The notes beneath the pieces were generated by a model. That model was not told where the DNA came from. It did no database searches and saw only the letters and a list, made by a program, of their open reading frames with translations. The position numbers and the translations under genes are program-made. This document shows, piece by piece, positions 37,012-40,600 of a stretch of DNA of 64,000 bases (positions are counted from its first letter, which is position 1; each line of letters begins with the position of its first letter). Source of the stretch: an uncultured Gemmatimonadales bacterium (GTDB taxonomy: Bacteria > Gemmatimonadota > Gemmatimonadetes > Longimicrobiales > Gaopeijiaceae); contig CAWELD010000003.1 in assembly GCA_963809895.1 (NCBI GenBank), forward strand, positions 256,001-320,000, written 5' to 3'.

Positions 37012-37128
37012 TCGACGCGGCTGGGCCGCTGCGTCATGGTGACGACCTTTGCGAAACGGAACGGTTGCGGGAAGGCAGCGATCAGGGCTATTATCGATCA
37101 GCCCCCCGGCTTATCCGGTTCGACCGAC

Positions 37129-38892
37129 ATGTCTACCACACGAGTACTACACCTCGACGCATATCGGGGGCAGCGCCAGCAGCGCGTCGAGCGAATGCTC
37201 GCGCTCCTGGGGCCCGATCCCATCCGGTATCGTCTCGCCCTGCGCCTCGCCGACCTCCTGCACTCCGTGGGAGGCGACCGCGCGGCTGTCGTGTGGACCG
37301 ATGAGTTCGGCTCTCTGGTCCCGCACCCCTTCGTCGTTCTCGACCTCACCTCCGATACTCCCAGGCGAGGTGTGGATGGCCGGATCCTGCGCACTGCGTG
37401 GGAGCGAGGCCTCCCGGGGGTCGTCGACCACCCGGATCTGCCCCGACGGGCGGTGCCGGAGGCGCCCCGGAGCGCTGCCTGTGTGTCGCTGGGAAGTGAC
37501 GGAGCCCGCACCTGGTTCGCCCTGGTCGACGCAGTGGTGCCGCGGACGCCGCTCTCCGACGAGGACCGGCAGACCCTGCTGCACCTGACGGGTGAGTGCG
37601 CGGCGGTCATTCTGCATCGGGACCTCCTGGACGAGCGCTCCATGCCCGGCAGTGCCGACGCCTTCACGGGTTGGTCGGTGCTCTCGGACGTCGACGAGCA
37701 CCCCGATGCCGAGGAACGCATCGGGAATCGCTTTCTCGTGCTCCGGCTGGTGCGCTCGCTGCTGGACGACGACCTGACGCCCGACCCCGAGAGCCTGTCG
37801 GCCCGCATCCAGGCGCTGCGCACCGAGTTCGACTGCGTCCAGGACGAGGACGAGGAAGTCGATCTGTGGCGCGCAGTGCTCGACTCGGCGGAACAGCATG
37901 ACCCGGCAGCCCTGGCGGAGGCGGTCCTCGACATGGGACTGCGCGCCGAGGACCTCGGCGAGCTCGAGGGTGCCCTGGAGGCCTTTCGCTCCAGCTACTG
38001 GGTAGCCGCCCTCGGGGGAGCCCTCGACGCAGCGGTCGATGCAGCCCGCTACCTCGGCCGCAGCCACCGTCGGGCGGGCCGCTGGGACGATTCGGAGTTG
38101 TGGTACGTGCGAGCCGCGGAGGTGGCGCGGACCTTCGACTCGCGGGCGGGAGAGGCGCTGGCGCTCGACGGTCGCGCGGCGACGCTCCGGGCTCGTGGGA
38201 ACATGCCGGCCGCCCGGCAGGTCCTGACGGACGCCCTGTACTCAGCCGAAGAATCGGGCGATCCCCACGCCCTGGGCAGCGTGCATCAGCACCTCATGAC
38301 CTTCCACCATCTCGTCGGAGAGGGCACCGAAGCCGTGGAACACGGCTGGCAGTCGGTGATGACCTTCCGCACCCGCCGGGACCGGCTGCGGGCGCTGGTC
38401 TCACTGGCCGGGATCCTCCTGGACCTCAAGGCCGTGGATCTGGCCGAGCAGGCCTACTCGCTGGCGGTGGAGCGGGTGGAGGAGGGATATTACCGGATCT
38501 TCGCGCTGGAGGGCTACGCTCACACCGCCGCCCTGAAGGGGGCGCGCGAGGAGTATGAGCAGCGGTACCGCGCCGTGACCGGGGCAGGTTGGGCGGCGGG
38601 AGGTGTCGAGTTCCAGGCTCAGGCGCTCCTGTACCGGGGGCGGGCCTATCAGGCCCTCCACGACTACGAGGAGGCGGAAGAGTGGTACGAACAGGCGCTG
38701 ACCTTCGCCACCAAGGCAGGGCTCAACGCATATGCCTTCCAGGCCGAGGATGCCCTGGCGCGCCTCGCGGCGGCCAGGACGTCGGGCTCGGTCGAGGAAG
38801 CGGCGCCGGCCGCGCTCCCGGCCCGTACCCTGGCCGAGGTCAGGGGGGGCCTGGGAGCGCTCCGGCAGGAGCTGGCCAGCGTGGCGTCCTGA
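37129..38892 (+). CDS. GAF-like + TPR-repeat cytoplasmic protein
   Basis: N-terminal GGDRAAVVW...RSAACVSLG...LSDEDRQTLL.L..ECAAVI resembles GAF; C-terminal half has TPR-like helices (YLGRSHRRAGRWDDSELWY, LYRGRAYQALHDYEEAEEWYEQAL). Confidence 0.75.
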   Translation: MSTTRVLHLDAYRGQRQQRVERMLALLGPDPIRYRLALRLADLLHSVGGDRAAVVWTDEFGSLVPHPFVVLDLTSDTPRRGVDGRILRTAWERGLPGVVDHPDLPRRAVPEAPRSAACVSLGSDGARTWFALVDAVVPRTPLSDEDRQTLLHLTGECAAVILHRDLLDERSMPGSADAFTGWSVLSDVDEHPDAEERIGNRFLVLRLVRSLLDDDLTPDPESLSARIQALRTEFDCVQDEDEEVDLWRAVLDSAEQHDPAALAEAVLDMGLRAEDLGELEGALEAFRSSYWVAALGGALDAAVDAARYLGRSHRRAGRWDDSELWYVRAAEVARTFDSRAGEALALDGRAATLRARGNMPAARQVLTDALYSAEESGDPHALGSVHQHLMTFHHLVGEGTEAVEHGWQSVMTFRTRRDRLRALVSLAGILLDLKAVDLAEQAYSLAVERVEEGYYRIFALEGYAHTAALKGAREEYEQRYRAVTGAGWAAGGVEFQAQALLYRGRAYQALHDYEEAEEWYEQALTFATKAGLNAYAFQAEDALARLAAARTSGSVEEAAPAALPARTLAEVRGGLGALRQELASVAS

Positions 38893-38906
38893 CGCGTCGG
38901 GACGCC
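38883..38906. terminator. Hairpin between the convergent TPR and peptide genes
   Basis: ggcgtcctgac / gtcgggacgcc inverted repeat (one G-U pair). Confidence 0.45.
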
Positions 38907-38913
38907 GGGGGGG

Positions 38914-39051
38914 TCAGCTTCCGGAACCGGGGTGGCCGAACTCGCAGTTGGTGGCGTCGGGGGCGCAGTCGTCGTACGAAGTCGGCGATGAGCAGGCGCT
39001 GAAGGCCATGGTTGCCAGAAGGGCGAGGAGGGTGAGCCTGATGGTCCGCAT
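38914..39051 (-). CDS. 45-aa exported peptide / small lipoprotein
   Basis: MRTIRLTLLALLATMAFSA-CSSPTSYDDCAPDATNCEFGHPGSGS; GGAG RBS 9 nt upstream; signal peptide with FSAC lipobox; GC-rich third positions. Confidence 0.75.
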   Translation of the reverse strand: MRTIRLTLLALLATMAFSACSSPTSYDDCAPDATNCEFGHPGSGS

Positions 39052-39183
39052 GATGAATGCTCCACGAGTCGGTGCCGCGTGTCGTGGCCGGGGAATCCGA
39101 CCAACTGCCACCGCAAGGATGGGCCATACGAGGCCCGACCACGTCATCGTCAGGCAAGCTGCCTATGTCTTTTCCGTAGCTTC

Positions 39184-39981
39184 ATGGCTCTGATCGCCCT
39201 GGCGTCGCGCGACCGGGAGCTGGTCCGGACCGTGCGCACCAGCCTGGATCGGCGCTGGCACGACCTCGTGCAGGCCAGGTCCTGGGAGGTTCTCCCGCGT
39301 CAGCTTCGGGAACGGCCGGTGTCCGCCCTGCTCCTGGACCTGGCGCTGCTGCCCCCGGTGGGACCCGTGGCCGTGCGGGCGCTCCAGAGGGGATTTCCGG
39401 GGTTGCCCCTGGTCGCCCTGGCCCGTCTGAAGGATCCCCGCACGGTGTTCGAATTGGGACAGCAACGGATTCGACACCTCATCGTCATGGATGCCGAGGC
39501 GTCGACCCTCGAGCTGCGTCGCAGCGTCGTTCGGGCCGGCGAGCGCGCCGCACCGGGTCTGGTCGCGCGCTGGCTGGGCGGGCTCGTGGATCCGAGGGGA
39601 CTGGAGGTGGTACGAGCGTCCCTGGAGCTGACCCACAGATGCTGGAGTGCGGATCGCTTCGCGCGCTCTTTCGGGCTGAGTCGACCGGTCCTGAGCGAGC
39701 ACCTCAAGGGCATGGGGTTGCCCTCGGTCGGTCAGCTCATGCTCTGGGGCCGATTGCTGCACGCCGGCCACTGGCTCCCGGATCCGGCGCGGTCCGGGGA
39801 GAGCGTCGCGCGTCAGCTGGAGTACGCGAACGGATCGGTCTTCCGCCGGGCGTTGAGGAGCCACGTGGGATGCACCCCCACGGAGCTCGCCGAGGGCGGT
39901 GGCCTGGGGCGGGTGCTCCGGGCCCTCATCCGCGGTCAGGATCTCCCGGTTCCGGGCGAGATGAGCGCATCGGTGGCCTGA
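39184..39981 (+). CDS. AraC-type HTH regulator with a degenerate receiver-like N-terminal domain
   Basis: SALLLDL and FPGLPLVAL (REC-like); SADRFARSFGLSRPVLSEHL and ESVARQLEYANGSVFRRALRSHVGCTP (two AraC HTHs). Confidence 0.8.
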   Translation: MALIALASRDRELVRTVRTSLDRRWHDLVQARSWEVLPRQLRERPVSALLLDLALLPPVGPVAVRALQRGFPGLPLVALARLKDPRTVFELGQQRIRHLIVMDAEASTLELRRSVVRAGERAAPGLVARWLGGLVDPRGLEVVRASLELTHRCWSADRFARSFGLSRPVLSEHLKGMGLPSVGQLMLWGRLLHAGHWLPDPARSGESVARQLEYANGSVFRRALRSHVGCTPTELAEGGGLGRVLRALIRGQDLPVPGEMSASVA

Positions 39982-40079
39982 CCGCCAGCGGTTGTCAGGG
40001 CACCGGCCCGGAGGCCATCTTTCGACGTTCCCGGTCACTCTCGCGGTCATGGGCCGCAGCATCCCACGGAGTCCCGCAC

Positions 40080-40307
40080 GTGCTTCGCTTCACTGCCGCC
40101 GACGGCCGCGAGTGGGAGGTCGTGGCGGGACGGGAGTCGTGGGGAGCCATCGTGGCGATCTTCATCCCGGTGGGGGACGATCAGGCGTTGCGGCAGACCC
40201 ACCTGAGCGCCGCCTCGTACGAGGAGGCCAACGCCGAGCTCGGGGCGCTGGGGCAGGAGGCGTTACAGGCGCTGTTGGATCGCGCGATACCCAAGACCAT
40301 GGACTGA
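40080..40307 (+). CDS. Small hypothetical protein (75 aa)
   Basis: GTG after GGAG RBS; LRFTAADGREWEV...LQALLDRA; normal codon usage. Confidence 0.7.
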   Translation: MLRFTAADGREWEVVAGRESWGAIVAIFIPVGDDQALRQTHLSAASYEEANAELGALGQEALQALLDRAIPKTMD

Positions 40308-40342: not shown

Positions 40343-40600
40343 ATGAGGGAGTTCGAAGACGCCGAGGGCCGTCGCTGGCTGACCCGGGTGGCCAGCCGGA
40401 GCGGACCCGACTACAAGGGCCGTTATCACCTGGTCATGGAGCCCGTGGACGGCGGGCCGGACGACGTGGTGGAGTTGGTCGACGTACGGTGGAACAGCGA
40501 GAAGACCGCGCAGCGCACCCTCGACACCATGTCGGGGGTGGAGTTGCGACGCCGGCTCAGATCCGCCCGCGGACGCGGGCGCTCGGTGTCACCGGCCTGA
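40343..40600 (+). CDS. Small hypothetical protein (85 aa)
   Basis: ATG after GAGGAG RBS; MREFEDAEGRRW...MSGVELRRRLRSA. Confidence 0.75.
   Translation: MREFEDAEGRRWLTRVASRSGPDYKGRYHLVMEPVDGGPDDVVELVDVRWNSEKTAQRTLDTMSGVELRRRLRSARGRGRSVSPA

Follow-up and report, generated by a model that had tools for sequence, protein, structure and literature searches.

A candidate peptide-signaling cassette of a TPR protein, a small lipoprotein-type propeptide and an AraC regulator in Gemmatimonadota

The stretch of 64,000 nucleotides (nt) analyzed here, referred to as the window, is part of contig CAWELD010000003.1 of an uncultured Gemmatimonadales bacterium (assembly GCA_963809895.1, positions 256,001 to 320,000). 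The subject is a cassette of three genes encoding a tetratricopeptide repeat (TPR) protein, a propeptide of 45 amino acids (aa) and a regulator of the AraC/XylS family. Taken as a whole, the cassette is read with moderate probability as a circuit for cell-to-cell signaling by a peptide, in which the TPR protein would be the receptor and control the AraC regulator. The genes and their predicted features are the following.

37065-37094, plus strand: likely housekeeping sigma-70 promoter of the TPR gene (TTGCGG, 18 nt, TATTAT)
37129-38892, plus strand: TPR receptor candidate, 587 aa without signal peptide; GAF-like domain, N-terminal bundle, seven TPR pairs and capping helices
37216-37623, plus strand: GAF-like alpha/beta domain, aa 30-165 of the receptor, from the structure model
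37642-37902, plus strand: N-terminal helical bundle, predicted AraC-contacting part, aa 172-258
37903-38784, plus strand: TPR superhelix, aa 259-552; the predicted peptide groove includes residues 311, 314, 388, 395, 424 and 458
38914-39051, minus strand: propeptide gene, 45 aa; lipoprotein-type signal with Cys20, linker with a Cys pair, C-terminal unit
38917-38937, minus strand: predicted mature heptapeptide GHPGSGS, propeptide aa 39-45
39116-39121, minus strand: candidate -10 element CATCCT of the peptide promoter; its A and T are conserved at a fixed distance from the box
39142-39181, no strand assigned: predicted AraC box; strong half-site at 39163-39179, the half-site 21 base pairs (bp) to the left being degenerate in the window's genus
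39184-39981, plus strand: AraC/XylS regulator, 265 aa, with an atypical receiver domain at aa 1-120

An earlier sequence-only reading of this DNA had placed the three genes at these positions, and every coordinate holds on recheck. The arrangement that it described was also reconfirmed: the peptide gene is convergent on the TPR gene, with 21 bp between their stop codons, and divergent from the AraC gene, from which its start is separated by 132 bp. A GGAG lies 8 nt ahead of the peptide ATG. An ATG at 37036 was considered as the TPR start and dropped because homologues begin at 37129 and a promoter-like motif sits between the two ATGs; a sigma-70-like motif pair also precedes the TPR start in most of the printed loci of the window's family, f1 (read by eye). 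A promoter scan based on strict consensus found none and left the TTGCGG/TATTAT pair of the TPR gene unscored. Metatranscriptome contigs cover the TPR gene in one of three runs and one contig spans 38893-39147, the AraC gene being uncovered; this coverage refers to contigs only, includes neighboring genes as well and may reflect DNA carry-over.

The conservation of the cassette was followed in loci collected in three ways, namely by the AraC protein in metagenomes, by the TPR protein across the phylum and by the AraC protein in Gemmatimonadales. In the metagenomes, where the best 80 of 184 AraC matches were taken and one identical to the window was left out, the peptide gene is present at 62 of the 64 loci with at least 300 bp upstream of AraC and the TPR gene at all 49 with at least 700 bp; the two loci without peptide correspond to an insertion sequence-like insertion and a frameshifted copy. 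TPR matches at an E-value of 1e-30 or better occur in 107 of 301 genomes of the phylum (G213 among them, counted only) and in 0 of 48 genomes of six other families, and the new loci examined from this search contain the peptide in 25/25 cases and AraC within the locus in 23/25. For Gemmatimonadales (best 80 of 362 AraC matches) the peptide was detected by script in 65 of 69 loci, plus two by eye, and the TPR gene in 66 of 66, and a further set that overlaps the others has the peptide at 61 of 63 TPR loci. As background, the filter used for the peptide gives 7 positives among 1500 random stretches of 260 nt from the window's genome. The absence of peptide and AraC genes beside TPR homologues had been named beforehand as what would speak against signaling; both are almost always there. 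Of 80 records of relatives, 78 carry Gemmatimonadota or Gemmatimonadales in the title, no cultured strain is named among the matches listed, and neither a single-protein scan of genome contigs nor a search of a plasmid collection gave a match.

The TPR and AraC genes remain neighbors in three gene orders, including those devoid of a peptide gene. The AraC family is enlarged in family f2, with up to 12 matches per genome, and genome G374 of this family carries four full cassettes among the six loci fetched; peptide-less tandem pairs, TPR then AraC, stand alongside full cassettes within the same f2 genomes (L171-L190). Family f3 shows the order AraC then TPR, and two f3 loci from another set also bear a peptide gene. 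Many f3 loci, mostly those without a peptide gene, encode a conserved protein of 60-75 aa that carries no name and is convergent on, or shortly downstream of, the TPR gene (L017, L019, L020, L195, L202, L203, L208-L210).

The propeptides measure 40-98 aa across 98 distinct sequences (the filter admitted 28-120) and their signal consists of a basic N-terminus, a hydrophobic core and, by sequence rule, the lipobox FSA-C20, whose Cys is invariant in the 13 aligned peptides. The view of a secreted peptide is amended with regard to the kind of signal, the lipobox being of the lipoprotein type and not of a plain signal; export by Sec is predicted by the same rule. Tandem arrays are frequent: 45 of 72 family-type peptides end in 2-10 copies of a unit, which has 7 residues in 44 of the 45. 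The signal had been proposed to be the 8-mer FGHPGSGS with a conserved GxxGSG C-terminus. The repeat phase of the relatives points instead to GHPGSGS, in register with the closest homologues, which end in GHPTTGS and GFPTTGN, and the family pattern is x-x-[PLI]-[GD]-[SPTG]-[GN]-[NSG]; peptides of family f2 end in GSGT/GSGG-like tails. In the Gemmatimonadales peptides the corresponding seven residues are flanked by two Cys.

Neighboring copies in 37 arrays of at least three copies differ by 316 synonymous and 44 non-synonymous codon changes, with synonymous change in all 37 arrays; therefore the protein sequence of the unit is what selection keeps, and these counts show tandem amplification of a heptapeptide under purifying selection. 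Between close relatives the unit varies: when the last 38 propeptide positions are compared within one clade of 19 (AraC identity 91%), unit position 2 varies most, differing in 0.77 of pairs, and unit position 3 and the last residue tie for second (0.62).

The evidence that links this unit to the TPR protein comes mainly from 54 distinct Gemmatimonadales triples. Asn at peptide position 4 occurs with Gly at receptor column 388 in 34 of 36 cases and Gly with non-Gly in 12 of 12; likewise, Asn at position 3 accompanies Gly at column 424 (23/25) and non-Asn accompanies non-Gly (28/29). Both pairings amount to size compensation between peptide and receptor residues. On a tree from which the groove helices were left out, independent pairs changed in the same direction in 6.7 of 7 cases (position 4/388, p 0.016) and in 12.3 of 14 (position 3/424, p 0.0005), and none changed in the opposite one. 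Columns 388 and 424 had been chosen post hoc and therefore every TPR and AraC column was tested alike; column 388 ranked first of 379 (next best 3.6) and column 424 first of 400 (next 5.2). For position 4 the second-ranked column (392), and for position 3 the third-ranked one (428), sit one helical turn off the top column. Thr at position 2 goes with His at column 395 in 7 of 10 pairs, none opposite, this column also being first of 400 (next 5.2). Columns 388, 395 and 424 all belong to A helices, and the A helices of a TPR domain form the lining of its concave face. Among held-out loci, with duplicates above 98% removed, the Asn/Gly combination at position 4 holds in 9 of 9, and at position 3 Asn/Gly holds in 3 of 4 and non-Asn/non-Gly in 8 of 9. 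The window's own pair, Gly at position 4 and His388, agrees with the position-4 rule.

Decay of the groove where the peptide is missing tells a similar story. In 18 peptide-less f3 receptors the bundle is 0.62 identical and TPR3-6 0.37, and the same bundle and TPR3-6 comparison gives 0.56/0.59 and 0.53/0.54 in the peptide-bearing sets, all at matched AraC identity of 0.60-0.75. At 20 groove positions, identity is 0.30 in the peptide-less and 0.70 and 0.61 in the peptide-bearing receptors, a figure biased by the fact that these positions were self-chosen by helix geometry and some were already known to be conserved. Arg311, Arg314 and Asn358 are all retained by the three peptide-bearing f3 receptors, whereas most of the peptide-less ones do not have the full set of three. 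From this decay it follows that the groove is under selection where a peptide gene is present. Prediction of a complex between TPR aa 172-587 and peptide aa 16-45 scored 0.02 against a mark of 0.32, with the controls unfolded, and counts neither way.

The AraC regulator matches HTH_18 of Pfam (37.9 bits, cut-off 33.6) and has AdpA as best PDB match. Its N-terminus had been described as a degenerate receiver-like domain, which the structural comparison bears out: a receiver fold was recovered at Z 16.9 (root-mean-square deviation, rmsd, 2.1 A over 120 residues), and 105 of 111 regulators retain Asp52, the Asp that follows strand 3. Two requirements for receiver phosphoryl chemistry, a Lys behind strand 5 and an acidic pair behind strand 1, are missing, and Thr after strand 4 is restricted to regulators of the f4-f6 group; with only the Asp conserved, the protein does not qualify as a canonical phosphorylated response regulator. 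In three genomes of one genus the partner behind AraC is reduced to about 160 residues, comprising the bundle and the first TPR. The bundle is thus kept beside AraC without the groove, and therefore it goes with AraC.

Downstream of the AraC gene the window encodes two small, conserved-looking proteins without Pfam match (40047-40307 and about 40345-40600), the first of which follows the AraC gene in locus L007 too. The window's genome (G000) also has a solo receiver-AraC paralogue at G000:C4:125976-126746 (E 3e-46 to the family profile), with no family TPR match adjoining it. At G000:C5:30797-33704, and in a like copy on C6 (two small contigs), a distant AraC-like gene is followed by a 684-aa protein, the start of which we take to resemble a BTAD/SARP-type activator.

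The spacer between the peptide and AraC genes of the relatives contains a direct repeat with a period of 21 bp beside a -10-like element facing the peptide, the conserved A and T of which, at a fixed distance from the box, were seen in 78 intergenic regions. Promoters activated by AraC/XylS regulators have this layout. A model from which this locus was left out ranks the window's box as the best match in its genome (16.0, the next 3.7). In family f4 the box pattern finds 134 sites in 46 of 81 genomes, the reversed control finding 4, and the bases outside the search pattern (42 boxes, 40 fetched loci) extend the repeat and display the -10-like element (A in 27/42, T in 26/42). Boxes with GGG go with 'RS' in the second recognition helix of AraC (9/9) and those with GCG with 'KT' (76/79), a correspondence that is clade-linked. 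A close AraC orthologue accompanies the good boxes of three genomes; distant AraC paralogues only are found in five box-less genomes and in two with one weak box match. The first suggestion that AraC drives peptide expression is supported by the box at the peptide promoter of relatives; the window's own box is half degenerate. The box lies upstream of the TPR gene in just 1 of 54 Gemmatimonadales loci.

The ORFs (open reading frames) downstream of boxes were picked by script (41), and 33 were scanned, 8 being left out as short or implausible. They comprise five histidine kinases, three single receivers, three TonB-dependent receptors, CheW, a porin-like barrel, five others and, as raw counts throughout, 15 that match no family, a cassette peptide among them. 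The box is found again ahead of a related TonB-dependent receptor gene and of single receiver genes (L362, L367 and L374, in three genomes; L361 and L372), which may point to an uptake route or to feedback. The intergenic region of locus L129 has a different direct repeat, in four copies with a 21-bp period before a family-f5 AraC gene, which suggests lineage-specific boxes. A genus-level box model was tried for the regulon of the window's own genome and rejected, as it performed no better than the reversed control.

The structure model of the receptor candidate has a predicted local distance difference test (pLDDT) score of 94.6. The protein had been described as a 587-aa GAF-like and TPR protein; this is confirmed, with Pfam returning TPR families only and the GAF-like domain appearing in the model, where it matches the GAF-containing chains 4zmu, 5akp and 3hcy (Z 12.0-12.3). 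This domain is missing from the f3-f6 receptors examined, and the conservation of polar and aromatic residues in it hints at a small molecule as a second input. R314 of the receptor is invariant in both groups tallied. The model's top fold matches are TPR proteins of a generic kind, namely an APPBP2 chain (Z 18.9) and MalT domain III (Z 18.5, rmsd 3.7 A, 301 residues), followed among RRNPP proteins by Rap of phage phi105 (16.7), pLS20 Rap (15.7), NprR (14.1) and PlcR (12.8); the pLS20 Rap alignment (6t3h, model residues 196-531) takes in the bundle as well as the TPRs. No close paralogue was found in the window's genome, none of the 15 proteins scanned reached the cut-off of an NCBIfam model, and no RRNPP chain is among the 60 listed of 160 PDB sequence matches, which LGN heads. 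One homologue matches the AimR hidden Markov model at E 0.05 only, and the nearest atlas cluster, mostly Gemmatimonadota, carries no name.

Stand-alone GAF-like homologues of 160-190 aa occur in family f1 (L021, L022; second matches in G021, G031 and G035) and adjoin a peptidase-like gene. An EamA/DMT-like membrane gene (by eye) is divergent from the TPR gene in many f1 loci (L005, L008-L012 and L014) and missing from the window; its product is a candidate transporter, not essential to the cassette. In Gemmatimonadales a prepilin-type-looking gene is divergent from the TPR gene (L225, L230, L231, L238, L247, L265, L286, L289).

Taken together, these data support the signaling proposal of the sequence-only reading in outline, with the corrections given above and on a comparative basis (synteny, covariation, promoter box). 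In the proposed circuit, the 45-aa precursor would be exported as a lipoprotein and then cut to free the heptapeptide GHPGSGS; after its re-import, the heptapeptide would occupy the groove of the TPR protein in the cytoplasm. The TPR protein would act on the neighboring AraC regulator by direct contact through its N-terminal bundle, and AraC would activate the peptide promoter from the direct repeat next to its -35 region, which closes a positive feedback loop. In the Gemmatimonadales relatives AraC may control up to about eight further promoters, and the TPR gene would run from a plain housekeeping promoter without box. It is very likely that the peptide is the ligand of the TPR groove. Control of AraC by contact with the TPR protein, predicted from synteny and domain retention, is likely, and there is a comparably good chance that the signal passes between cells and is not a report on a cell's own export; these three estimates are not independent of one another. 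Binding, processing, the passage of both membranes and the contact through the bundle with its sign are what we infer from the comparisons. Since partners reduced to the bundle persist next to intact AraC genes, a co-activator switched by its ligand is slightly favored over a Rap-like anti-activator; with either sign, the outcome is positive feedback on the peptide gene.

Several observations weigh against this circuit. All 20 family f3 loci hold AraC and TPR, but only one of them has the peptide. Neither a protease nor an importer gene is recognizably linked to the cassette, no transporter search having been made, and the heptapeptide must cross an outer membrane. The coupling between TPR and AraC (mutual information, 145 pairs) shows clade signal only, and the conserved Asp52 may allow for another input. 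The window's genome has one strong half-site, for which a second target was not found, the next half-site falling inside a pheS-like coding region; in five f1 genomes the motif is confined to the cassette, once per genome. The fold score of Rap does not exceed those of MalT domain III or the APPBP2 chain. Covariation also has its limits. Peptide positions 5 and 7 yield no clear receptor column, the held-out loci include no ring peptide with Gly at position 4, so that one side only of that rule was tested, the position-3 rule breaks in distant clades and two distant peptides combine Asn with Asp388 (by eye). The covariation that had been proposed as a check is strong, at the level of residues, in the Gemmatimonadales and not in the window's own family f1. 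There the position-4 rule is loose (Gly with non-Gly in 15/19) and the peaks are weak (partial correlation 0.28-0.29, near TPR aa 421-480, not groove-specific), A helices not being in excess over B helices among 31 representatives, with 9 of 72 peptides dropped for want of a recognizable unit. A split at f1 column 458 (23/23 and 8/8) was discounted, as it stems from a single clade.

An unlikely alternative is a cell-autonomous sensor of export or envelope state, in which the TPR protein has as its ligand the tail of the precursor before export, or fragments taken back from the cell's own periplasm, and reports lipoprotein export or periplasmic proteolysis to AraC. Its logic resembles the sequestration cascade of the secreted ExsE on the AraC regulator ExsA. 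Such a sensor accounts for all the covariation and the box without any crossing of the outer membrane, the lipid anchor would keep the precursor on the cell, and the putative box targets include many envelope and two-component genes; the hypervariable unit positions among close relatives, however, fit specificity groups better, and the tandem identical units and the occurrence of more than one diverged cassette in a genome (four in G374) are better explained by dose amplification and specificity groups. Less probable still is a true peptide-TPR pair beside an AraC regulator that merely activates the peptide gene and answers to phosphorylation of Asp52 or to a small molecule, the output of the TPR protein going to another partner. 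The retention of Asp52 in 105 of 111 regulators, a TPR-AraC coupling analysis that is not clean and the existence of solo AraC family members, one of them in the window's genome, speak for this separation. It is at odds with the adjacency of TPR and AraC in three gene orders, even peptide-less ones, with the bundle-only partners directly behind AraC in three genomes and with the lack of the Lys and acidic pair required for phosphoryl chemistry.

It is highly improbable that the small protein is a RiPP (ribosomally synthesized and post-translationally modified peptide) or toxin precursor or a structural lipoprotein, served by the TPR protein as chaperone or immunity factor. Repeated cores are known in RiPP precursors and weak TigB matches were obtained (E 0.006-0.01), but these reach 16 bits against a cut-off of 70 and every match lies far under its cut-off; moreover, no modifying enzyme or exporter is recognizable beside the cassette in the window, and the units are rich in Gly, Ser and Asn, with strain-specific changes mirrored by a cytoplasmic protein. 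The signaling circuit is thus preferred. Its extension to a class-wide peptide quorum-sensing language of diderm bacteria, independent of RRNPP, is tentative and falls a little short of an even chance as a joint reading. Lipoprotein precursors are predicted therein to shed linear or disulfide-ringed heptapeptides, with code positions 2, 3 and 4 facing columns 395, 424 and 388 and setting strain dialects; the TPR protein would switch a pseudo-receiver AraC, with the box before different signaling and envelope genes in each genome and as many as four or more channels running in parallel in a cell.

Intracellular TPR receptors of exported peptides are described for Gram-positive Firmicutes in the accessible text of two studies (PMC10075063; PMC9765709). 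In the portion of the former available, RRNPP systems are defined by a propeptide of 10-100 aa, Sec export (SPI in the strict mode, SPII admitted in the relaxed mode), a receptor of about 250-500 aa, TPRs and adjacent genes (PMC10075063). The cassette has outright three of these five features, i.e., a small propeptide (45 aa), TPRs and neighboring genes; its lipobox, by sequence rule, fits the relaxed mode only, and the receptor (587 aa) exceeds the length range because of the GAF-like domain, GAF-less relatives measuring about 400-440 aa. No NCBIfam or Pfam model above cut-off indicates homology to Rap, Rgg, NprR, PlcR, PrgX or AimR; with homology not demonstrated, the cassette is therefore not filed as an RRNPP member. 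In RRNPP/RRNPPA systems the mature peptide sits in the concave groove of the TPRs, for which the covariation on groove-lining helices is indirect support in the cassette, and it re-enters the cell through an oligopeptide permease; in the Rap subfamily a three-helix bundle at the N-terminus acts on a response regulator. The analogy originally drawn holds for a Rap-Phr-like way of working and is not extended to family membership; the fold scores to Rap do not exceed those of unrelated TPR proteins. The cassette was not found described in a literature search that covered titles and the starts of abstracts, most subscription journals being beyond reach, and 'gemmatimonad' is missing from the main texts of PMC10075063, PMC9765709 and PMC12700828, whose supplements could list such loci.

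A TPR peptide system in a diderm phylum for which no described peptide communication was found would change the Gram-positive-only picture of these receptors and raises the question of how the peptide leaves its lipid anchor and crosses two membranes. The circuit is directly testable with short synthetic ligands, the receptor residues named by covariation and the DNA box as reporter, and the many natural peptide-receptor pairs would form a set of orthogonal switches.

Among known systems, MalT domain III and the LGN/Pins-type TPR peptide binders are the best or near-best fold and sequence matches; the cassette is devoid of their STAND ATPase, LuxR helix-turn-helix (HTH) and GoLoco parts, and a generic TPR likeness shows no function. 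The ExsE-ExsC-ExsD-ExsA cascade of Pseudomonas type III secretion likewise couples a small secreted protein via partners to an AraC activator, whereas the cassette has a single TPR intermediary and strain-variable repeated units, with no injectisome link seen. NprX, PapR and AimP are peptides of 5-8 residues with feedback on the peptide gene. The NprR-NprX, PlcR-PapR and AimR-AimP pairs resemble the cassette in peptide size and repeated precursor copies; NprR, PlcR and AimR carry their own HTH according to the accessible text of PMC9765709, whereas in the cassette DNA binding is assigned to a separate AraC protein. As far as the same text goes, multi-copy propeptides, lipoprotein-type export and peptide-less receptors also occur in RRNPPA systems, and a lipobox, present throughout the cassette family, is reported for 211 of 2,734 (8%) of them (PMC9765709). 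The closest likeness is to Rap-Phr: a cytoplasmic TPR protein with an N-terminal bundle and no HTH stands beside a small propeptide with a predicted Sec-type signal and a C-terminal unit, the structural match extends over bundle and TPRs (Z 15-17) and the predicted target here has a receiver fold. The structural alignments show 11-12% identity and NCBIfam gives no Rap match. Rap-Phr belongs to Bacillus and its mobile elements, whereas the cassette belongs to a diderm phylum, its peptide gene is convergent on the receptor gene and divergent from that of a dedicated AraC regulator, and it has an extra GAF-like domain and disulfide-ring variants of the peptide.

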